Assembly: GCF_037042905.1 (NCBI RefSeq)
Contig: NC_087251.1
Location: 25,298,001-25,362,000 of the forward strand
Source of the DNA: Lytechinus pictus
Taxonomy: Eukaryota
Direction of reading: 5' to 3'
Length of the DNA stretch: 64,000 nt
Made by a program: the position numbers and the translations under genes. Position 1 is the first letter of the stretch; each line of letters opens with the position of its first letter. Positions 47,207 to 62,762 of this stretch are shown piece by piece. Below the pieces are notes generated by a model. It made no database searches, was not told the DNA's origin, and was given only the letters and a program-made list of their open reading frames with translations.

Positions 47207-49704
47207 TAGGAGTGTGCCATAAATGGGTGACTTTTGGTTTTACTGTGCCAACAGTTTTTGTCTCGCCTGCATAGAAAACGAGACTATAGGCGCCGTTTTC
47301 CGATGGCGTCGGCGTCAACATCAAATCTTAACCCAAGGTTAAGTTTTTGAAATGACATAACTTCAAAAAGTATATGGACCTAGTTCATGAAACTTGGACA
47401 TAAGGTTAATCAAGTATTACTGAACATCCTGCCTGAGTATCAGGTCACATGACCAAGGTCAAAGGTCATTTAGGGTCAATGAACTTTGGCAGGTTGGGGA
47501 TATTTGTTGAATTACCATCATAACTTTGAAAATTTATGGATCTACAATGTAGTTCATGAAACTTGGGCATTAGGTTAATCAAGTACCACCAAATATCCTG
47601 TGCGAGTTTCAGGTCACATGAACATGGTCAAAGGTCATTTAAGGCCAATGAACTTTGGCCGTGTTGGGGGGTATTTGTTGAATTACCATCCTAGCTCTGA
47701 AAGTTTATGGATCTAGTTCATAAAACTTGGGATATAAGAGTAATCAAGTATCACTGAACATCCCCTGTGAGTTTCAGGACACAAAACTAAGGTCAAAAGT
47801 CAGTTTAAGGTCAATAAACTTAGGCCATGTTGGGGTAATTGTTGAATTGCCATCATTACTTTGAAAGCTTATGGATAGAGTGAATGAAATGTGGACATGG
47901 GTGTAGTTGACAAGTTTTATTCACCGTCCAAATGTCATTTATAGTCAATGAACGTGGTATAATGTCATTATATGAATGGTGTTTTTGTGAAATATTATTT
48001 TATAGTAGTTTTCAAAGTTAGCACTGCTGCTATATTAAATCGCGTAATGCAGGCTAGACTGCCAGAAGCACTCCACTTGTTTCGTATTCCTTTAACCTTA
48101 TCTCAACATGAAATGACAATATTATTTGTCTCTGGTCAAGGTGGTCCGAGAAAAAAGTGTGCCGGGCCCAAATCTAAAGTGGCCGCCAAAATCCCCCCAA
48201 ATCACAGTTTTGGCCACAACTTCTTTCTTGGTGGTCATTTTATCTGGTTTTGGTGTCTATTCATGTTTTTTGGGGGGGCAGGCAATTTGTTTTTCCTAAA
48301 ATTAGTTCTTTTAAACCATTATTTGTAAAGTTAAGAGGTGATTTAACTTAAATTTGCAAATTTTTAGACCCTTTTTTAAGCAAAATTAGGTTCCATCGTC
48401 TTGTGGTTCTTGGATATTAGATGACACCAGTTGACCAGTAGTAAGCAGCTTCATATAGCTATATTGCTTTTATTCCTCTAAATTGAGTTTAAGACGGATA
48501 TTTGCGAAATACATCTTATCAAATGAAAAAATGTAATTTACGGTATCCATAGGGGTGGCACGGTGTACAATATATGGTACATACTGTACACTGCATACAT
48601 ATCCATGCATTGACCACCATGGCATACAACTAGGACTTTATATATATACCAGTGGCATGCATGTAGTAGTGAGCTTCTGATGTTTAGAATTAGATTGTGA
48701 CTTGTGAATTTGATTGCTTGTTAGCTGATGAACATGATGTAACCCGATGATGAACATGAATTGCATGTAAACATCATGTAGTGTACGTACATACATGTAC
48801 ATCATATTTTCAGCCACATCTTCATTTGGCAGCTTGTTTTTACCTGGTATTCTAATCCTATATTATGGAGTCAGGTAATGTGGTAATGCTGGTCAATGGC
48901 TTTCAGGATTCCATGCAAGTTACCATTGGATGGCAAAGTTACCATAATCAGAAAGCCAGTGTAAGTGCCATAATAGGGGGGGGGTGACTTTAATCCATTG
49001 TTAAAGATATTTTCCTCCCCCCCCCCCTGAATGAGCATAATTGAAAAAAATATGTCTTCAATCTGAGACAAAACATACAGTATCTTCAATTTCTCAATAA
49101 ATCATTTAGTATCACACTATAGTTTATATACAGACCTTGTCATGATGGTCAATGCATGAATATACATGAATGCAGTGTAGTATGTACAATACAATGTATA
49201 CTGTATAGCCCCTATGGATAATACAATTTTTTTTTTCAATAATATATTTTTCGCAAATATCCGTAAAAACCAAAGTAGAAGAATAAGAGCAAATAGCTAT
49301 TTGAAATTATTTGCTATTATGGAACTGGTATCGTCCAATATCCAAGAACCACAAGAAACCTAATTTGGGGCTGAAAAGGGTATTGTATGTGTAAATGTAG
49401 GTAAAATCACCTTTTAACTCCAAAATTAATGGTTTTTAAGTAATCATTTCAGGTTAAACAAATTGCCTGCTCCCCCCCCAAAAAAAAAACCCAACATATT
49501 ATATGTGGGCAAAACTTTGATTGGGGGGGGGGGGGGGGGGTTGGCAGCCATTTTGGATTTTGGCCTGGCACACTTTTTTCTCGGACCCGAGGCAAAAAAT
49601 ATTTGTCATTTCATGTTGAGATACATTACAAGGAATAGATCAAAACTGTTGCCATATTAAAATGTCATAAAAAGTATTTTTGATCCATGTATAGCCCACT
49701 CCTA
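47207..49704. mobile_element. TAGG-ended long-TIR (hAT-like/foldback) element with a HINE inserted in its left arm
   Basis: TAGGAGTGTGCCATA / TATAGCCCACTCCTA ends; inverted arms about 48090-48600 vs 49140-49640. Confidence 0.7.
47258..48081 (+). mobile_element. HINE-like element
   Basis: Same head, cores and CCACTTGT 3' end, in a T-run. Confidence 0.8.
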
Positions 49705-51271
49705 TGATCAAAGGGGTTTTGCTACTGAAGATTTTAAAGGCAAAGTTTTAAATGTTAAAGGAAACTTAGATGATGAAAAATTGTCTGAGATTTTCTTATT
49801 TTTATGTCACGACCTGTCCTTTGGTAAATAGGAATTGTGTTGATATCTCAACATGTCTCTCTTTCGTTTAAGTTGAAACTGATAACTGACAATTTATATT
49901 TCATACATATTATTTAATTTTTGGTTTCTTACAAGAAACAAAAAATAAGGTATTGTTTTATGACTTTCATATGAAAGATCTGCCATTATCATAATATTAC
50001 TACACATGTATTTGTTATTTACACGACTGTTTCCAAGTTGTTGGGGCTCCTGGCTGGTTCCATTATCAATTGGCCTCATGAAGATGAAAGTGGTTAGGGT
50101 ATTTAAATGAAAATACATATAAATCAAGGATTTTGACAGGATACACTTTTCCAATAATTTTATGGTGCATATTATTTATGTAGACATATGGTGCTATTCA
50201 TTGAGCGGCTTAAACATGTACCATCGTTATCCTTGAGAAATTATGTTCAATGGAATACAAATTTTTCTCTTTTTTGCTTTTGTTATTGTTTCTGTGTTTC
50301 TCAGAGTAGTCAGGATAGTGATGTATGTCTTAAACAAATCCCCGAAGGATTGATGAAAAAAAAGCTGTACTTTACAATACATTTTTGTTTGTAAAAGCAT
50401 CATCCTTTTTGTAAGAACTCATACATCTGGTGTAAGGAAACATTAAGAGCTATAGCTTGATGTATGTAGCCACTTCTTCAATTATTTTGTTTGTGTTTAT
50501 ACTTTGATAATAACTAATCTATTCCAAGTCCATTGTGAATTGAACATCTTGGCCTATAGGGTATTATAGAGCTCAATACTGCCCTGGTTACTGTACATGA
50601 TTGTATATTGTCTTTGTAGACGTTTTTTGATAAATACTAGGAAAAGCTATTAGGAGACTAGGAGTGGTTTTTTCTTTTGTTTTTGTTGTAAAGTTGTACT
50701 TTGTTATGTTTTCTTTCACAATTCATTGAATGCGAAGTTTTTGATGGAAAGTATGTGATTGGTCAGGATCAACACTTCAAGAAAAAATCTATAGGTTTTT
50801 AATTATCTATTGAGATACATGTTGGGTTCGTTTTATAACCATTGATTTGTAAAGATGTTCAGACAGAACTTAGAAAGTTTACAGAGAATTCATTTTAAAA
50901 CCACTCCATGCTTTATTATCATTATTGTGGTTTTTTTTTTCAGAGTGTGACTTGTTACTTATGGCAATGTTGTTTTTGTAAAACAAAAGAACAATTTGTT
51001 CTCTCATTTAAGTATTTTTTTAAGGAACAAAGCTAAAATAGAAGCTTGATATTATTTATCTTTTCTGTATAATGACTCGTTGCATTAATTTACACCTGGC
51101 ATAAGAAGTAAATTTGAGATAATTTTGTCTCCACAGTGTCTTTTTTAATTCTCTATCTCTATCCTTAACTTGAGTTTTTTTAATACTGCCATGTATGCTT
51201 GTAGTGGCAATGTATATGTAGCTTCTAGTAAAACCTTTCAACATGTAACTTTTTGTGACTGAAAGTGATTT

Positions 51272-52318
51272 TTGTCTCACCTGCGAAGCATAGTGAGACC
51301 TTATGCGCCGCTTTTCCGACGGCGTCAACACCAAATCTTAACCGAAGGTTAAGTTTTTTAAATGACAGTATAATGTAGAAAGTATAAGGACCTAGTTCAT
51401 TAAACTTTGCCATAAAGTTAATCAAGTATTGCTGAACATCCTGCTTGAATTTTGAGTCACATGACCAAGGTCAAAGGTCATTTAGGGTCAATAAACTTTG
51501 GCCAAATTGGGGGTATTTGTTGAATTACCATCATAACTTTAAAAGTTTATGGATCTGATTCATGAAACTTGGACATAAGAGTAATCTTGTGCCACTACAC
51601 ATCCTGTGTGAATTTCAGGTCACATGATCAAGGTCAAAGGTCATTTAAGGTCAATGAACTTTGGCCAAATTGGGGTATTTGTTGAATTACCATCATAACT
51701 TTGAATGTTTATTGGTCTGGTTCATAAAACTTGGACATAAGAGTAATCAAGTATCACTGAACATCCTGTGCAAATTTCAGGTCACATGACCAAGTTCAAA
51801 GGTTAATGAACTTAGGCCATAATCTATTGAATTACCATAACTTCTGAAGTTTTTGGATCTGTTTCAAGAAACTTAGACATAAGAGTAATCATGTACCACT
51901 ACACATCATGTGCGAATTTCACGTCACATGACCAAAGTCAAAGGTCATTTAGAGTCAATGAACTTTGGCCATATGGGGGTATCTGTTGAATTACCATCAT
52001 AACTTTGAGAGCTTTATGGATCTGATTCATGAAACTTGGACATACATGTAAGAGTAACCAAATATCACTGAATGTCTTGTGTGAGGTACAGGTCACATGA
52101 CCTCTCAAAGTTTATAGATATAGTGTATAAAATGTGGATATAGGGGTAATCAAGTTTCTCTGACAAGTTTTAGATCACATGATCAAGGTCAAATGTCAAT
52201 GAACGTAGTATTGTATCATTATACATGAATGGTGTTTTTGTGAATAATTATTTCATAGTATGTTTCAGAGTGTGAATCGTTTGATGCGAGTGAGACTGTC
52301 AGAGGCGCTCCACTTGTT
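51272..52318 (+). mobile_element. HINE-like element
   Basis: GTCTCACCTGCGAAGCATAGTGAGAC head, ~160-bp cores, GTGAGACTGTCAGAGGCGCTCCACTTGTT end. Confidence 0.8.
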
Positions 52319-52908
52319 TTTTCATGGAATGATAACCAAGATATTGACTGATTATGTTGATTTATTAATAATTTATTGAAAAATATGAATGTTTGATTGA
52401 TCACATTACACATTGATTATGAGTAGACTTATTGATAAATTGTTTAATAAATGATTGATATGTAAAACTTGATGCACCACTCCCGATTTTCATTATTTAT
52501 CATTAAATCAACATTGTGCTCTTGACTTTCTTACGCACATGTAATAGCAATCTGTCTGTCAACAGGAGGGGAGGGAGGGGGCTAAATGTTCTCTTAACCC
52601 TTATTCCATCAACCTAATTCTCCCACTAAGTGCCATCTCACTCCCTATTATCCCGACCCCCATGAAGATCCACATGATAAAAGTTAAAATGCTGCCCAGA
52701 AAAGTACAATTTGTGTTCACTCATGCATTGAAGTTCAATTTAATAATTTATGAAATTTACTTGAACAACCAAACTGGTCATGATTGATCATTAATTCATC
52801 ACAACACCCTTAATTTTTCAGGTTTCAATTAAAGGATTTGCCTCTCAGAACTGGCAGAAATTGTAAGGCTAATTCATGCCCAGCCTTATTTTCATACCCT
52901 TTCTTTAA

Positions 52909-53472
52909 AGAACAAGTCCATCCCAACAAATAGTGGATTGAATAAAAAGAGAAATATCAAACAAGTATAACACTGAAAATTTCATCAAAATCGGATGTAA
53001 AAAAAGAAAGTTTTGACATTTTAAATCTTTGCTTAATTTCACAAAACAGTTATGCACATGCTGGTCAGTATGCAAATGAGGAGACTGATGACATAATCCA
53101 CTCACTATTTCTTTTGTATTTTATTATGTGAAATATGGAATATTCTATTTTTCTCCTCTTTGTCAAGTGAAACAACGATTAATTCCTCCCTGAACATGTA
53201 GAATTAGCATTATTTAATACTATATTGTTCAGACATGTTGGTCCTTATTGTCAAATCTATAAAAAAAAAAAATATTGTATAATTCAAACAATATAAAACA
53301 AAAGAAATAGTGAGGGGCATCATCGGCCGTCTCATTTGAGTTGTGCATAACACTGTGTTGTGAAAAATAAGCAAAACTTTAAAATGTCATAACTTTCTTA
53401 TTTTACATCCGATTTTGATGAAATCTTCAGCGTTTAGCAAGTTTGATTTTTCTCTATTTACTCAAATCAACA
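52909..53472. mobile_element. Kolobok-like MITE family A, right end lost
   Basis: TTAA|AGAACAAGTCCATCCCAACAAA and body matching 3480/31019. Confidence 0.75.
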
Positions 53473-54204
53473 TAGTGGGGAGTGCTCGCTAAACACTTAT
53501 GGGTGTCTTTGAAGGTTGACTTTATTGGCTTTCCCCCCCCCCCCCCAAAGTGATATATTTTTTTGTTTGGCAGCCATTTCAAAAGTGTATAGTTTTTTTG
53601 GACGCACTGACTGTATAGGAGCTTCCATCAAATAGATATTACTATTGTATCAATGTCAGGGTCGTATGTAGGGGGTGCAAAAAGGGAAAAGGGGTGCGGA
53701 TAAAGAAATTGAAAAAAATGAAAAGGTAAAAGAATAACAGTGCTGAAAAGGGATACCTCTTGTTATTACCATGGTAATGCAGTTTCCAACACATTTAGAA
53801 AATTAATCTTGCATGTCTTTATGCAGGGATGAATATTCATGCCACTTTTTGATTGATGTTAATCATACTAATTCTCTAAAAATTCCAACAAACAGAAATA
53901 TTCCTTTTTTAACGCAAATCTTGCTGCCGGTTTGCATTTTGATATTTTACTTTTCATTAATTCTCACAAATAGTTCTGAAATACATTATTCTCTGGTTCT
54001 ATTGTCAAAGCTTTTCAATACGCGCTGATTTGATAAGGGAGATATAAATCATCTTCATAGATTTCTACTAGTAATCATTGAAATGTCCTTTTTGGGTGAG
54101 AATATAATATAAAGTCAAGTCATATAAAGTATAATCTCAAGCATGGTAAAAAATAATGTGACATATACTTAGTACTACATGTAGTTTCTATGTATGAAAT
54201 CACA

Positions 54205-55130
54205 GATGAAATAATCGTGAAGATGATGATCAAGATGTGGTGATGAGGATAATGATGTGGGTGAAGATGATAATTATAGACTGGTGATGGTGATGAGGTG
54301 GGTGGTGATGATGAGGATAGTGATAGTAATGGTGTCGATGATGGTGATGATGAAGCCAGTGGTGTTGACGGGTATTTTGATGATAGTGATGATGAAATTG
54401 GTGATGATGGTGGGGGTGAGGTCTTGGGGGAAAGAGCCCCCCCCCCCTCCCCCGAAAAAAATGATAATAAAATACAAAACATAAATAATAAGAGAAAGAA
54501 AAGAGAGAAGATTTTCAGTATTATGTCAGAATCTATCAAAACGTAAAATTATGTAATAAAAATATAGAAAAGTTTGCTTGCTCACAATTAAAAAAAAAAA
54601 ATACTGGCACAATCTGCCATATCTTGTCCCTCTCAAAATCTTTGGCTCATTACGCCAATGATAATTTATTTGGTGGTGATAATGAAAGTAATTATATTAA
54701 TAATGATGGTGATTATGATGGTCATGATAGTGACGATGATCATGATGGTGTGGTGATGGCAATGATATTGATGAAGTTGATGATGATCACTCCCTTTTCA
54801 TCTCCAACCATTTTCACATCTCCAGCTTTCATCTCAATCCTTCCTCTCATCTCTAACCTCTCCTCATGTCAACCCTTCCACATCGTTTCCATCCACCTCA
54901 TCTCCCTGCTCGTCTCTTGTAACCCACTCATCTCTAAACTTTATCATCTCCATCCCTCCCACATCATCTCCATCCATCCTTGCATCATCCCCATTCCTCC
55001 TCTCATCATCTCCATCCACTCGTCGTCCCCACCCTTAACTCCATCACTCATCATCATGGCCATCCCACCTTTCATCATCTCCACCACCCCCCCCCCATTT
55101 AATCTTCATCTCTCCAATCATTTCCATCTG
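54205..55130. repeat. Degenerate (GAT/GGT)n and (CAT/CCAT)n low-complexity tracts
   Basis: GATGAT-rich 54205-54420 and 54660-54790; CATCTC/CATCC-rich 54790-55130. Confidence 0.7.
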
Positions 55131-55137
55131 ATTACCA

Positions 55138-55299
55138 GGTGACCCAACATTTGCTCCTGCGATAATTGCCCCAGGATTAATTCTGTCTTCGAGGGTCAGG
55201 GTTGCAATAGGGTTTCATGGTAGGTTTAGGGGTTGAAGCTGAATAGTGTGTGGAATTTACAGCGGAGCAATTGTCGCCAGAGCAAATGTCATGGAACTC
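55138..55299. mobile_element. Short MITE with 7-8 bp TSD
   Basis: ACATTTGCTCCTGCGATAATTGC / GCAATTGTCGCCAGAGCAAATGT inverted ends, ATTACCA on both flanks. Confidence 0.7.
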
Positions 55300-55529
55300 A
55301 TTACCACATCTCTCATTAAAGGTTGAATATTAAGCGGGATAAAGAATACTTCATAGTGAAATAACCCAATATTCAAAATACTTCTTTGGAGTAAAGTGGT
55401 TTTATTAAGTAACAATAAGATAAACTTAATCAGATGTACAGTTACATTGTAACACATATTGAACTGAGGTGTATATAAAATACATGTATATTATATCCCA
55501 CAAAAATCAAATCCTGGTTCAAAACTTAA

Positions 55530-56106
55530 AGGGATGGTCCGGGCTGAAAATATTTACATCTTAATACATAGAGTATAATTCACTGAGCAAAATGCCGAAA
55601 ATTTCATCAAAATCGGATAACAAATAATAAAGTTATTGAAGTTTAAAGTTTAGCAATATTTTGTGAAAAAAGTTGTCATGAATATTCATTAGGTGGGCTG
55701 ATGATGTCACATCTCCACTTTCTGTTGTCTTATGTTATTACATAAAATCATATTTTTTTCATTATTTCATACTTGTCTGAATGTCCCCCTTATAATGAAA
55801 TAAGTTGCAGCAATAAATATTTAATGCACTATTCAGTTGACAATCCAATTTTTCTAGTTCTTGGAGGAAAAAAAATTGAATAAACCTAATTTCATATAAT
55901 AAAATACAAAAGAACAAGTGGAGATGTAACATCATCAGCCCACCTAATGAATATTCATGACGACTGTTTTCACAAAATATTGCTAAACTTCAAAATTCAA
56001 TAACTTTGTTATTTGTTATCCGATTTTGATGAAATTTTCTGCATTTTGCTCAGTGAATTCTACTCTATTTATTAAGCTACACATACTTTCAGCCCAGACC
56101 ATCCCC
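55530..56106. mobile_element. Kolobok-like MITE family B
   Basis: TTAA|AGGGATGGTCCGGGCTG..CAGCCCAGACCATCCCC|TTAG. Confidence 0.85.
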
Positions 56107-57175
56107 TTAGATAGCATTACATTACCAGATACATTATTATGATGATAAATATGACAATAGCATAGTAATATCATTATTCCAGTTGGGAACAATATCCTCT
56201 GTTTTGGTGTCTATGTAAAGCTAACAATAAGGACAATCTTAAAATCACAATAGTGGCCAATTCAATTAACATTTATCAAACAATTGCACTTTGTTTCAGG
56301 AATATACATCCTGTTATAAATTACTAAATTCATATTTGGTTACCATGTCAATTACATAAACCCCAACTTACCTGGAGGGATTTTCAGCCATCCCTCATCA
56401 TTGTTTGCCATAAACAAAAACTGGCCATACAGGGTTTGCGATTCAGGCGGCCTCAAAATAGTTGGAATGATAAGAATGATATAGAGTACTGACAATATTA
56501 TAGCGATATCAAATATTTTGAAGCTCTGCAGTCTGCACCTCTTTTGCTACTGAAACAAATCAAACCATTTCAATCTTCACTTTGTCTTCAATTTAGAAGC
56601 AAATAATTTTTTTAAATATATTAAAGTTAAGATAATTGCAACTCATTCAATCTTAACATGAAAGTTCACTTGGACAAAACAAGTCTGCTATGCAGGTGAG
56701 ACAAAAAAATTGGTGAAGGTTTGAGGAAAATCTGTTAAATATTAAAAAAATTATTAGAATTCTAAGCTTAGCCTTTGGATTTGTGGCGTCACACACACGA
56801 GCAGCTGCCAAATAAAGTTATGTAATATAAAATGCATGAATTTCATTTTTTAATGGTTCCAGAGGACATATTTTTGTTATTTTGTGTTTGGGTGTAAAAT
56901 GATTGGTCCTTTGATATAGAAAAGGTATAGAAAAAAAAAATTCATTATGTAGAAATGCTGCCCGAATATGACGTTACAACTCAAATAATTGAAATTCAAA
57001 TAACTTTTTAATTCTTTGATGGATTTTCCTCAAAACTTAGGCAATATTTTTATTTTTTTTTTCTTCTGTTTTAACAATAAACTTTTTGTCAGCGTGAACT
57101 TCCCCTTTAAACCCACTTGAACGATACTTGGTATCATTTGGAAGATTTATAAAACAGATATTACACATGAATTAA

Positions 57176-57768
57176 ACCTAAATAGACTGGGCTATTTCGA
57201 TGCCTAAGAAGACTGTGGGGGGGGGGGCTGATTCAGCCCCCCTCCTTATGATCTCGGCCGTTGATCGCGACGAAACTTGGCACCCGCGTTACCAATGGCA
57301 TAATATACAAAACTACAGGATCAAACTCTGTGAAAAATCTCATTGCTAATTAATTATGCTAATTTATGCATGAAATCAGAATTTTGCTTTAATTAACTAA
57401 ATAATGCCCCTAAAATGCTAATTTTTGGTACACAGACACTTTATATTAATCTGTTCAAATGTACTAACAAAAAATTTCAAAATCACATTAATTTTTTCAT
57501 GTATTTAACTGTTTTCAAAATTTCTTATGTATTTCTTTGTTTTTGGACTTTATGTTTTTATTGTTTTTTCAATGGAAATTGTCGGGGACTTTATTTGGAC
57601 CATAAATAAGATGGAATTAATTGATTTCAATCAGTAAATGGAAAAATTATACATTTATGAATTTCGGCTAAAAACTCTATTTGCATTGGATTTGTACACA
57701 AATTTACGTTTTTGTGCAATTTTGGGTCTGCATGCACTTATGAAATGATGCGTAATTTTGGAACCCCC
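57176..57768. mobile_element. piggyBac-like MITE, one end only
   Basis: TTAA followed by ACCTAAATAGACTGGG..GGGGGGCTGATTCAGCCCCCC; truncated by the next element. Confidence 0.5.
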
Positions 57769-58067
57769 CGTATCCAAAATATCCGTGAGTAGATGTCTGG
57801 GGGGGGGGGGTAAATGTCCAGGGGGTAGATGTCCGGGGGGTAGATGTCCGGGGGGGTAAATGTCCGGGGGGGTAAATGTCCGGGGGTAAATGTCCGGGGG
57901 TAGATGTCCGGGGGTAATTGTCCGGGGGGTAGATGTCCGGGGGGTAAATGTTCAGGGGTAGATGTCCTAGGGGGTAGATGTCCTAAGGGGGTGGATGTCC
58001 GGGGGGTGGATGTCCGGGTGGTGGATGTCCGGGGGGTGGATGCCCAGGGGGTAGATGTTCGGATACG
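57769..58067. repeat. ~15-bp tandem array (GGGGGTAGATGTCCG)n, probable foldback/MULE arm
   Basis: Tandem units bounded by CGTATCC / GGATACG. Confidence 0.75.
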
Positions 58068-59258
58068 ATACAATATATATATCAAAAAAGTTAATTTTTC
58101 ATTCAATTCGATTGTTCTTTCTTTCTTTTAAAGAATTTGGAAATACATGTACCAAAAATAAGAGTTGAACTTTGATATACCTGCATGAACTGCATAAAAA
58201 ATTATTTATTGTATCTATGAAGCTGTATTACCTCATCGATCAAAGGACTGCCCAAGTCATTGGAATTCGGTACTCTTTATTTTAATGAAAGAAATGGAAA
58301 ATCCGTCTTGTTGAATATGAAACCTCTTCTCGTCCATGGTGTAGGTTGGTACCAGCCCAAGTGCTTGTATCCTCCAGGAGACCCGTTGTTTACAACTTTT
58401 AAATGGAAGTTTCATTAAAGCTGCGACAGTAACAAGTAAACAAATGAGAGACGTGTTTTTTATATCGAAAAGCAAGTTTTTAGATTTTGATAAGGCAAGT
58501 TAAGTTTTTCAATTTTAGTAGAATACATTTCTTTTTTCAATGACATATTCTTTCATATTGAGAAACTAAGTGTTTCAATTTTGATTATAATCATGATTAC
58601 ATTCTATGTCAGTTGTGCATCCCCATCCTGCTCCTACAAACTTAGAAAACACTAAAAATTTGTAATTATGTATACGAACAAAAATAAACAATGAAGACAA
58701 TTTCCTACAAAACTGTAAACTTCATCATGATAACGTCAATACTGAGAATTGTTCACCCCTGTGCATTTTGTGTATTTTTTGTAGCCTTGCACAATTTGCA
58801 GATATGACCCATATGCCCCTATAAAACATACCTTTGTTAAGTCAGGTGGCTTGTTGACGAAAAGGAACTATTACGGATGGCAAATTCCTCTTGGGATTGT
58901 ATAAGTACAACAATCAACTGAGCTGGCCTCCGAAGAACCAATGTAACTGTGTTTATTCAATCTAGGAGGTTAAAAGAAAAAGAGGGAAAAAACATCCTCA
59001 GTTTCATGACCATAAATATATCACTGAAATTGTAGTTTACATAACTTTCTATATCATCATGAACCTACATGTAATGCATATTTGACTCTACAGTCTGAAT
59101 TAAATGGACTTGACAAATAAATTGAATATTGTTGGTAAAAATAATCTTCTATGTCTGAACAGGTGTCTGCAGCAGTTAAAAAATGATGCATATTTGTTGC
59201 ATTTAACTCTGCCAAAGACAAATCTAAACGTCTGAAAGAAGACTAATGTTTGCATTTC

Positions 59259-59447
59259 AACTGGGCGTTGTGGCGTGCGCCTGTAATCCAAGCTACGTGG
59301 GGAAGTTACAATTTGATGCAGAAGTTCGAGGTTCGAATCCTGGTCACGTCTTTCGGATGGTGACGTTAAAGGTCGGTCCCAGACGTAAATAATCATATCT
59401 GATTGATACACGTCTGACAAAACTCAAATACACACACACACACACAC
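59259..59447 (+). mobile_element. SINE-like unit 1: 7SL Alu-domain head, tRNA-type B box, Deu/Nin-like core, (CA)n tail
   Basis: Head ACTGGGCGTTGTGGCGTGCGCCTGTAATCCAAGCTAC matches the recalled human 7SL 5' end at 29/37 ungapped positions; GGTTCGAATCC at 59330-59340; GTCTTTCGGATG-GTGACGTTAAA core; CA tail. Confidence 0.75.
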
Positions 59448-59448
59448 T

Positions 59449-59635
59449 AACTGGGCGTTGTGGCGTGCGCCTGTAATCCAAGCTATGTGAGGAAGTTACA
59501 AATTGATGCAGAGGTTCGAGGTTCGAGCCCTGGTCACGTCTTTTGGATGGTGATGTTAAAGGTCGGTCCCAGACGTAAATAATCATATCTGATTGATACA
59601 CGTCTGACAAAAACTCAAATACACACACACACACA
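59449..59635 (+). mobile_element. SINE-like unit 2, head-to-tail copy of unit 1
   Basis: Starts 190 bp after unit 1; about 8 substitutions and 1 indel, several at CpG; same CA tail. Confidence 0.75.
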
Positions 59636-59804
59636 TTCTGTGCAGTTTCCACATATAAAAACAAAACATTCTAATGCTAGGTGCATAATTTATCCTTTTT
59701 CTGAAATAATTGTTTTTCCTAATTTTGGAAATCCTTTTCTCTCACAAAACCTTACTTTTGGTTAAAACAATATCTGCTATCAAAAATATCAACTAATTCA
59801 AATA

Positions 59805-60913
59805 GTCACTCTCAATGGGACGGTTCGCCGATGAATATTCATTAGATTGTGGTCGTGTGCACGTGTGTGTGTACAATACCGAGTGTAAAAAACAAAGAAA
59901 GTTTTCAAATGGTGTGTGTGTGTATAACACAACGCAGGAGTTTATTTTACAGAGAATGAGTAGTATAGTGCAGAAAATTAAAGTGTACAATGAAGTTTTA
60001 CAGAGGAGGAAATAATATAAATACATATGGAAGACAATGCAAGATGAGGTGAGGCAAGTACAGTGATTTTTTTTTCTCAAAAGTATTAGTAGTAGAGGAA
60101 ATCATGGGGAAAAAATATATTATAGAGGACAATGTAACATGAGATGAGGCAAGTCTGCAATGAGGTTTTTTTTTCAAAGGAGGAGATAATACAAATATAT
60201 ATCTAGAGGACAATGTAAGATGAGATGAGGCAATTAAGTGTACAGTGAGGTTTTAACAAAGAATGTATAACTAGGATAAGATAAAAAGAGGACAATGTAA
60301 GATGAGCTGTGGTAAGTGTACAGTGAGGTTTTTTCAAAAGAGGAGATGATAAAAAAATACCGGTATGTAGAGGACAATGTAAGATGAGGCACGTGTACAT
60401 TGAGGTTTTATCAAATAATGTATAATGATGATGTAGACTGTAGAGGACAATGTAAGATGAGCTCTCACTGTACACTTGCCTTGAGCCCTTGATCATCTCA
60501 TCTTACATTGTCCTCCATATTTGTATTATCTCCTCTTGAAAAAACCCTCACTGCACACAAGTTTGCCTTATCTCATCTTACATTGTCCTCAATAATATAT
60601 TTGTATTATTTCCTCTACTAATACTTTTGAAAAAACAACATCACTGTACTTGCCTTACCTCATCTTGCACTGTCCTCCATATATTTATATTATTTCCTCT
60701 TCTGTAAAACTTCATTGTACGCTTTTATTTTCTGCACTATACTACTCATTCTCTGTTAAATAAACTCCTATCCCTACGTTGTTTTATACACACTCACCAT
60801 TTGAAAACTCTCGTTATTTACACTCGGTATAGTACCGGTATACACACACACACACACACCCATGCACGTGATCCAATGAATATTCATCGGCGAACCGTCC
60901 CATTGAGAGTGAC
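59805..60913. repeat. ~1.1-kb imperfect inverted repeat with internal ~60-bp tandem units
   Basis: GTCACTCTCAATGGGACGGTTCGCCGATGAATATTCATT at 59805, reverse complement ending 60913; GAGGACAATGTAAGATGAG units flip near 60460-60495. Confidence 0.85.
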
Positions 60914-62762
60914 GTAGGAGCTGGACATTTCATCGCCCTTTGTTGTCATCAAAAGTGGCTACCAGAAAATACAAGCATTGAACCTAGCCGCTTGTAATGG
61001 GCACTTAATACATGCGTTAAAACTTTCACTTGACTCGTGCACTTTCCGTTCCAAATTTTCACATTTGTATGTTACATATATATAGATCCTATTTATCTCA
61101 TACTTTACTCACTTTCTTGGTGGAAAGTACCATGACTCAGAAAGTCAGGAATGAAACATAATGGTGTAATTTGCCTGAAAAACTACAGCGAAACAGCTAA
61201 AATCATGCCTGCTGCACATGCCTGCTGGCCTGAAGCAGGCCTGGACCCAGGAGTCCAAAGTGCATTTAAACATAGACTAGGGACTAGGGTAGATTGTGGT
61301 CTCAATAACTTGGAAAGAAAATTGTGAAAACAGAAATTATGCACTTACCATGATTATATGGATGAAGCCAGGTCAATCGTGTGGCAGTATCCTGACATCG
61401 AGGTACAGACTGGAATCTCAAAAAAACGAAAAGTTATCTCCTGCTACCCCAGTCTCGATCAGCCATTTTGTTATGAATTTTGAAAAAAATTAGGAGATGT
61501 ATCACGAGGTATTCTGTCCCGTGAGTATGGGTAAATACACGGTGAGCTCTGACCTGGGACTCACTGGGAGAACTTCTTGTTTTTTTGAGGTTCCAACTTC
61601 CAGTCCGTGCCTCGATGTCAGTACATGTACCACTCGATAGACCTTCATCCATCGTGGTAAGTGCATAATTTCTGTTTTCACAATTTATCTTGCTAGATTA
61701 ATAGATATAGCGAACATAATCTACCCTTGTCCTGTGAGTATGGGTAAATACACGGTGAGCTCCTGGGCGCCGGCCCGCGAAGCATGCCGGCGCTCCCGGG
61801 CCTGGGTATGACCACTCATTCAATGAACAAGGTTATGATATAACCTTGTTCTCAGTTACATCTCCATGTGTGGCAAAATAAGGTTGCAATGTTTGACTTA
61901 TTTTCTCTTTTTCTTTTGGACAAATGCTTGATTTTTTTACACTGTCAGTTTCCATTACAGCTTTTCACTATATAACTTGGGTCTTAAATAAATTTGATTC
62001 TTTAAATTATTTTTTCTTTATTAAAAATAGAGCTTAAAAAATGAAAATTTTCTTGCCATATTACTTTCCACCAATAGAGGGCGTACAAAAAAAATATGCC
62101 CAAAATTCAAGTTTTTAAGCGCTCTGGTCAATACAAAAATTATTCTATGTTACTAATGAAAATTGAATTGCAACTGTATGGAAATTAATAATTTTGGTCA
62201 CAAAAGTGATATTTTAATGATTTTTTAAAGTGTGTGCTCTGTACAGCATTGGCATGCCATAGTCCTACCTGTAGATTCCCCACAGGCAGGATGGTTGCAG
62301 TGAACAAGTGGGTATGACCAATGATACTTTCAGTGTTGAAAATGAAATACATCTTCCGTGCTTTTTTCTTCTTGCTGTGCTGGATAACCTCATGGTAACA
62401 CTTAACAGGCACTCGCGCTCATGCCTAAGTAAGTTACAACATTAGCATCGAGTCACCATGGACAAAAGTTCTTCTTACTTAGGTCTTAGCTATCAATATC
62501 ATACTCAAAGCAGCAGAATCGTAATCGTACCCAGGCAGCAGGGAGAATCCACACCGCGGCCGGGCAGCTTCGCGGGTGTGGGCTCTCTGCCTCTGGGTTA
62601 GCAACCAAGCGGCACGGAAAGCATCGAACCATCATCTTCTCCGTTGTTCTCCCCCGATATTCGGGGCAGGGATCAGCGGTATCCGCTGCTCAGGTTGGGG
62701 TGTCAGGTTTGTTAACAATAACACCATGAAAGCCGACAACCATGGCTGCCGTTGTATTATAA

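Follow-up and report, generated by a model that had tools for sequence, protein, structure and literature searches.

The window, the 64,000-nucleotide stretch of DNA analyzed here, contains two copies of a SINE that very probably belongs to a family of the host genome and is a mosaic of 7SL, tRNA-type, and Nin-DC-like sequences. The same account holds that the two copies came together by a second insertion and were then copied passively as a pair. A sequence-only reading of the window had proposed a SINE of chimeric make-up, in which a 7SL head is followed by a B box, a core resembling Deu/Nin elements, a stem-loop, and finally a CA tail. This proposal is supported by a match to the SRP model, by the dispersal of the element, and by a by-eye comparison of its core.

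The two units lie on the forward strand at 59259-59448 and 59449-59635 (190 and 187 nt). They are 95% identical in a pairwise alignment, and TRF calls the pair as a tandem repeat of period 190 with 2.0 copies and 95% matches, which bears out the two head-to-tail units of ∼190 bp noticed at first sight. Unit 1 is a full-length copy of a minor subfamily with a (CA)9 tail ending in CT, as judged from the alignment, TRF, and the genome search. Unit 2 belongs to the main subfamily and carries three private changes, according to the alignment and the comparison of copies. One of these, a C to T change, gives four T residues in a row (TTTT, 59541-59544), at which Pol III might stop, making unit 2 unlikely to be a source copy. 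The consensus of the SINE has no run of four T residues, so its transcripts would end in the flanking DNA. The stability of the predicted fold of a whole unit was no better than that of shuffled sequences (z = -0.23).

Unit 1 can be divided into several parts, all on the forward strand. The 7SL-derived head occupies 59260..59306 (59450-59496 in unit 2), starts at the 7SL +1 position, and corresponds to the 5' part of the SRP Alu domain with helices 2-4 and the UGUAAU turn. An A-box-like segment within it (59269..59279) is a putative promoter element. The B box GGTTCGAATCC follows at 59330..59340 (unit positions 72-82), preceded by a 7-nt duplication of its own 5' part that is absent in three of six older copies. 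The A and B boxes of human 7SL lie at positions 6-15 and 76-86, respectively (Kojima 2020, PMC7245038); the A-box-like segment is thus near the place of the human A box, and the B box of the SINE is at 72-82 compared with 76-86. A Nin-DC-like core of 33 nt (59348..59380) is followed by a 3' hairpin at 59381..59415, for which folding predicts an outer stem AGACGT/ACGTCT and an inner stem AATCA/TGATT and which is presumably recognized by the reverse transcriptase of a partner LINE. The unit ends with the tail GACAAAACTCAAATA(CA)n (59416..59448), to the end of which unit 2 is joined. The B box, the Nin-like core, the AGACGT/ACGTCT hairpin, and the (CA)n tail were therefore all found as they had been described.

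A cmscan search of positions 59200-59700 against Rfam matched Metazoa_SRP in both units, at 59260-59354 (34.3 bits, E 2.5e-7) and at 59450-59544 (31.9 bits, E 1.3e-6). These matches confirm the likeness of the head to the SRP Alu 5' domain. Their well-aligned part covers model positions 1-48, where helices 2, 3, and 4 and the UGUAAU turn lie, in line with the prediction that an SRP covariance match would be limited to the 5' ∼50 nt. An Rfam scan of the window at the gathering threshold gave no match; the gathering score of Metazoa_SRP is 70, and both unit matches fall below it, as expected for a fragment of 47 nt. The Alu-derived Rfam family mir-1268 also matches the units (33 and 29 bits).

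We then compared the head with the 7SL genes of the host, as the sequence-only reading had suggested. A search with the SRP model revealed seven full-length genes (272-283 bits): contig 10 carries a cluster of three, contig 1 has three more, and contig 12 a single gene. The SINE head shares 28 identical nt with six of these genes and 31 with the seventh, and overall 38/41 or 42/47 columns are identical. The local alignment score is 65, compared with 15.3 ± 2.3 for 500 shuffles. Moreover, the 5' ends of 12 standalone copies lie within 1-2 nt of the 7SL start. The common string includes bases that differ from the metazoan consensus, indicating that the head was copied in the host lineage and does not stem from human contamination. 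Derivation of the SINE head from the host lineage's own 7SL RNA is supported by these comparisons.

Some tRNA-derived SINE heads also start with a 7SL-like GGGC..GGTGGC, for example SINE2-2_SP as printed, which could speak for a tRNA-type head that has converged on 7SL. But the exact identity over 28-31 nt with host 7SL extends through the CCUGUAAUCC turn, which tRNAs lack, and neither ARAGORN nor the Rfam tRNA model (at E ≤ 10) found a tRNA in the units. Contamination by human Alu is contradicted by the host-type bases of the head and by the host-specific flanks of copies on 18 contigs. Convergence and contamination by human Alu, taken together, are extremely improbable explanations of the head.

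The similarity to 7SL ends where the head ends. When aligned locally with the rest of 7SL, nucleotides 49-172 of the SINE score 13-14, no higher than the null of 15, in agreement with the earlier view that the remainder of the unit is not 7SL. A forced colinear alignment of SINE nt 49-96 with 7SL nt 45-90 was marginal (P 0.008-0.10 in four comparisons). Alignments with two host 7SL genes have 46/64 and 47/63 identical columns, nearly all of the identity falling in the first 47 nt; SINEBase asks for at least 60% identity to tRNA, 5S, or 7SL over at least 60 nt, and both values lie above this. As judged from these alignments, the SINE appears to have taken only the 5' domain of 7SL, and the 3' 7SL segment is absent. 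The closing stem of helix 2 had been read as AACU/AGUU and taken for a compensatory change. It is indeed paired, as ACU/AGU with 3 bp in the model alignment, but the same pair is present in the 7SL paralogue on contig 12 (L037), the other six paralogues having ACC/GGU. Both changes therefore came from a host gene, by inheritance or by conversion, and they mark the source or a conversion partner rather than selection within the SINE.

Nucleotides 4-31, which hold helix 3, loop 2, the UGUAAU turn, and one strand of helix 4, are identical to host 7SL in all young subfamilies seen. Variation between subfamilies clusters in the helix-4 loop (nt 31-43), where a 1-nt insertion relative to 7SL and the loss of one loop C occur. 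This pattern is compatible with constraint on the head, in a family that is too young for a test. These observations bear on the question of whether the head has any role beyond transcription. It could provide only a Pol III promoter and a stable 5' end, with mobilization depending wholly on the 3' hairpin and tail and with no part for SRP9/14. Such a role would agree with the retention of the 5' domain alone, lacking the 3' strand of the Alu domain, with a tail of the stringent, LINE-specific kind instead of poly(A), and with the variable helix-4 loop, but the invariance of nt 4-31 speaks against it. Furthermore, the 50-nt 5' domain alone reportedly crystallized with SRP9/14, in work said to be that of Weichenrieder and colleagues from 2000. 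According to Kojima 2020 (PMC7245038), a SINE requires the Alu-domain fold to retropose efficiently, even where its partner is an RTE. We consider a purely promoter-type head a serious alternative, although somewhat less likely than not.

The tRNA likeness of the unit is confined to the B-box/T-arm region. Consequently, of the tRNA-like 3' half with a B box that had been claimed, the B box and T-arm stand, but a tRNA as such was found neither by ARAGORN nor by the Rfam model at E ≤ 10. To characterize the core, we compared the window with the sequences printed in the supplement of Matetovici et al. 2016 (PMC4758252), counting matches by eye. Positions 59348-59380 agree with Nla_Nin, a Nin-DC SINE of Nucella, in 26/33 columns, including an exact run of 12 nt, with Pan_3, a SINE of Potamopyrgus, in 24/33 columns, and with the Lottia_Nin domain in 22/32 columns. 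These matches cover only the 5' part of the printed cores. Within these bounds they are in line with a Deu/Nin-like core; Matetovici et al. 2016 (PMC4758252) place Nin-DC within the Deu domain. The T-arm region upstream of the core agrees with the tRNA-derived head of a Littorina Nin-DC SINE at 20 of 27 ungapped positions, again by eye. A relative in which a tRNA head precedes the same body was not found: each of the six diverged copies that we examined (76-89% identity) keeps the 7SL head or a remnant of it, so the fusion is old relative to the surviving copies. An older tRNA-SINE parent is thus inferred solely from the by-eye likeness to published mollusc sequences.

The DNA around the host 7SL genes has features of its own. 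A B-box-like GGTTCGAGTC motif in a tRNA T-arm-like context lies 19-45 nt past the T-run terminator of six of the seven genes (L031-L036, contigs 10 and 1), the contig-12 gene being the exception. This motif may be a downstream TFIIIC site of the kind present in yeast SNR6. Within the contig 10 cluster, an older SINE copy with 82-91% identity lies upstream of each of the three genes and in the same orientation (L031:1289-1467, L035:1293-1467, L036:1314-1473). They stop 27-33 bp short of the 7SL start, with the -30 region on one side and, on the other, a conserved upstream box that also occurs in two of the contig-1 genes. Evidently, a SINE insertion at the 7SL promoter was duplicated together with the gene. 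The downstream B-box-like element and the SINE in the promoters of the three-gene cluster both bear on 7SL transcription in the host lineage.

The motif past the terminators raises the possibility that the element was born at a 7SL gene, by a deletion that joined the 5' domain to a B-box element in the 3' flank of the gene, with no tRNA-SINE parent in the head. SINE nt ∼55-86 agree with the flank of the contig-10 genes in 25/33 columns (P ≤ 0.001 relative to shuffles), and the 11-nt B-box string of older copies is the same as that of the 7SL flank. But when the B box was held fixed, the sequences around it gave P values of 0.03-0.1 upstream and nothing downstream. The region also matches the T-arm of the published tRNA-derived Nin-DC SINE about equally well (the 20/27 by eye given above), and the Nin-DC core is absent downstream of the 7SL genes. 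The flank comparison is suggestive only, and we regard a birth at the 7SL gene as improbable.

Three genome searches yielded 52, 44, and 40 scored matches, which together represent at least 105 distinct units, spread over 18 contigs. Such counts give only a rough minimum, as common words were skipped in the search and one probe gave only 42 candidates. First-look candidates numbered 1677 and 1395 in two of the searches. Among 30 loci that were fetched, 13 have flanks unrelated to the window and, next to the element, to one another. Copies are 96-100% identical to unit 1, with older ones at 76-91%, and their tails vary from (CA)7 to (CA)17. The SINE family is therefore young and dispersed. Its size (190 nt, compared with the limit of 1 kb in SINEBase) and its interspersed, non-tandem occurrence, with 13/30 unrelated flanks and 18 contigs, are those of a SINE. 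Several copies are clustered within a few hundred kb at 17.47-17.93 Mb of contig 8 and at 26.10-26.42 Mb of contig 6, which may reflect local duplications or a preferred region.

The copies also bear marks of retroposition, namely a defined 5' end, a simple-repeat tail, and flank repeats above controls. The longest flank repeat of the 12 standalone copies averaged 5.0 nt, compared with 3.63 nt in 132 mismatched pairs, and a mean of 5.0 was reached in none of 5000 permutations. Repeats of at least 6 nt were present in 6/12 copies, the other six being without a convincing target-site duplication. Hence, the dispersed copies flanked by target-site duplications that had been anticipated do exist, and the element is not confined to a single locus, although clear duplications are limited to half of the standalone copies. 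The short, variable duplications and the simple-repeat tail fit a non-L1 partner. A BLAST search with the tail against ∼250 kb of genome sequence for a LINE sharing the 3' end gave matches only in SINE copies, and the best 40 candidates scored in genome searches were SINE copies as well. Three loci (L019, L024, and L029) have 9-14 extra nt between the flank repeat and the 5' end of the SINE, which may be untemplated or template-switch additions.

The arrangement of the two units had left three options: an Alu-like dimer, a local duplication, or the entry of another copy into the CA tail. That one unit was duplicated in tandem, or that a dimeric master retroposes as a dimer, would be suggested by the direct head-to-tail abutment, by the occurrence of the same dimer at ten loci, and by further adjacent pairs and an array of three to four units elsewhere. 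But units 1 and 2 differ at ∼9 sites, the same positions by which standalone copies divide into subfamilies, and this does not bear out a local duplication. In addition, the flanks of 17 of the 30 fetched loci match the window over more than 3 kb (96-99%); these loci comprise ten dimers and seven single units. All ten dimers of the window type lie inside the same non-coding repeat of more than 12 kb and have the same flank of more than 3 kb on both sides, indicating that they were copied as DNA within this large repeat. No window-type dimer was found in unrelated flanks among the 30 fetched loci, one independent fetched pair (L022) has a 14-nt spacer, and the junction of the window pair is the CA tail of unit 1 itself and not a linker of its own. 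An Alu-like dimer, whose units here would be of different subfamilies, is likewise not borne out. We consider duplication or a dimeric master very unlikely.

A second insertion fits the data better. Both junctions of the pair read (CA)nCT and then A, as expected if unit 2 integrated at the tail end of unit 1 and duplicated the CA repeat. At the single-unit loci, the body of unit 1 is joined to the five-A tail of unit 2, and these loci are therefore the products of recombination that collapsed the dimer. Two lineages can be told apart among them, and one has a private change in common with a dimer locus. Taken together, the subfamily differences and the junctions indicate that the pair consists of two separate insertions that were carried along on a large repeat. 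Independent adjacent pairs, two of them on contig 8, and the array of three to four units on contig 19 show that insertion beside existing tails recurs. Tandem-like SINE arrays are also known in bivalves, as far as the published accounts consulted extend.

The large non-coding repeat that carries the pair extends over 49075..61814 on the forward strand, with its left end at or beyond 49075, according to a wider comparison of the flanks. It contains no ORF of at least 120 aa except low-complexity frames. A 1.2-kb probe gave 19 matches at 97% or more and nine at 76-77%; the repeat thus has ∼19 copies at 97-99% on many contigs and an older set at 76-77%. A second, inverted copy starts just past the end of the window (L041), and the two copies stand tail to tail around a partly palindromic center rich in tandem repeats (62309-64438, 83% self-complementary). 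The repeat also contains an inverted repeat pair (59805-60228/60493-60913, ∼420 nt, 82% identity) and tandem repeats with periods of 82 and 155 at 60110-60463. It could be a large non-autonomous transposon or a segmental duplication.

Based on these results, we propose the following course of events. Nucleotides 1-47 of the 190-nt element would be a copy of the 5' domain of the host 7SL (SRP) RNA, beginning at the 7SL transcription start. After nt 47, a short linker would lead to a tRNA-type T-arm with the B box, a Nin-DC-like core, the 3' hairpin, and the CAAAACTCAAATA(CA)n tail. An older tRNA-derived Nin-DC SINE most likely exchanged the 5' two-thirds of its head for the 5' domain of 7SL. 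Transcription by Pol III would start at the 7SL +1 site and run into the flank, driven by an A box in the 7SL head and a tRNA-type B box ∼55 nt downstream. A LINE of the stringent type would then recognize the 3' hairpin and the CA-repeat tail and copy the RNA at a nick, so that target-site duplications would be short or absent. In addition, the head may dock the RNA on ribosomes through SRP9/14 binding, as in Alu. At the locus described here, an older copy (unit 1) would have received a copy of the main subfamily (unit 2) at the end of its CA tail. The pair would afterwards have been copied passively by the non-coding repeat of more than 12 kb, and in some copies of this repeat, recombination between the units would later have left a single one.

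Alu, the most thoroughly studied retroposon, belongs to the 7SL-derived SINEs, of which independent origins are regarded as extremely rare. According to articles by the SINEBase and Repbase curators, such SINEs are known only from supraprimates, hagfish, and, as of 2026, a shrew mole (Kojima 2020, PMC7245038; Kosushkin et al. 2026, PMC13023118). The sea-urchin SINEs named in the open-access literature searched are all tRNA-derived, as far as those articles describe them. We found no report of an invertebrate 7SL-derived SINE or of the tail string in the open-access articles to 2026 that were searched. A 7SL-like segment in an amphioxus Deu-SINE, mentioned in the sequence-only reading, was not encountered in the literature searched, where BflSINE1 is listed as a CORE SINE. 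The family described here might represent a further independent birth of a 7SL-headed SINE, the first outside vertebrates, with only the 47-nt SRP 5' domain placed on a tRNA-type B box and a Nin-DC core. We put this forward tentatively, as a possibility that we consider less likely than not. A young, uniform family in a marine invertebrate would add a 7SL-SINE origin in a very distant lineage, and its architecture, with the 5' domain only and a hybrid 7SL/tRNA promoter, is a different one. If the head binds SRP9/14, the minimal 5' domain would be enough for a ribosome-docking advantage, even with a stringent non-L1 LINE partner; and if this domain suffices, the central-deletion architecture of all known 7SL SINEs would not be a requirement. 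The element therefore offers a natural test both of the role of the 7SL part (promoter, SRP9/14 binding, or both) and of whether the central deletion common to the known families is a real constraint.

All known 7SL SINE families are described as having lost ∼183 nt from the middle of 7SL while keeping both of its ends (Kosushkin et al. 2026, PMC13023118). Judged by the features of SINE1, the present element has the 7SL-derived head, as seen from the Rfam match and the identity with host 7SL, but not the complete Alu domain that such a deletion leaves, since nt 49-172 score at the null level. It resembles Alu, B1, and Urop in having the 7SL 5' domain at the 5' end and a similarly placed Pol III promoter (Kosushkin et al. 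2026, PMC13023118). SRP9/14 binding is a possible further likeness, represented here by the sequence identity of nt 4-31 to host 7SL only. Those families have the full Alu domain with 5' and 3' 7SL parts, A-rich tails, and L1 mobilization (PMC13023118), whereas the SINE described here has no 3' 7SL part and instead a tRNA-type SINE body, a hairpin, and a (CA)n tail. Alu and Urop are also true dimers with an A-rich linker (PMC13023118), in contrast to the two separate insertions in the window. A head composed of both 7SL and tRNA parts has a counterpart in a mammalian L1-dependent SINE from the supraprimate 7SL lineage, as far as its published description goes.

The body of the element suggests a link to the Nin-DC/Deu superfamily (Piskurek and Jackson 2011, as cited in Matetovici et al. 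2016, PMC4758252). The 33-nt core resembles the 5' part of the printed cores (the 26/33 columns counted by eye), it directly follows a tRNA-type T-arm, and the tail is a simple repeat, as described for this superfamily (PMC4758252). The members of the superfamily have tRNA heads or, for Deu, also 5S heads (PMC4758252), whereas the SINE described here has a 7SL head, and only the T-arm/B-box part is tRNA-like (20/27 by eye). SINE1-1_EBu of hagfish likewise acquired a 7SL-derived head independently and outside mammals, through fusion with an older tRNA-derived SINE whose body is conserved; it is a young family with a non-L1 partner and a simple-repeat tail (Kojima 2020, PMC7245038). It differs in that it retains both the 5' and the 3' end of a centrally deleted 7SL, compared with only the first ∼47 nt in our element, and in that its partner is known to be an RTE and its tail is (AAC)n instead of (CA)n (PMC7245038). 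Finally, the hagfish is a vertebrate, whereas the host of the family described here is not.
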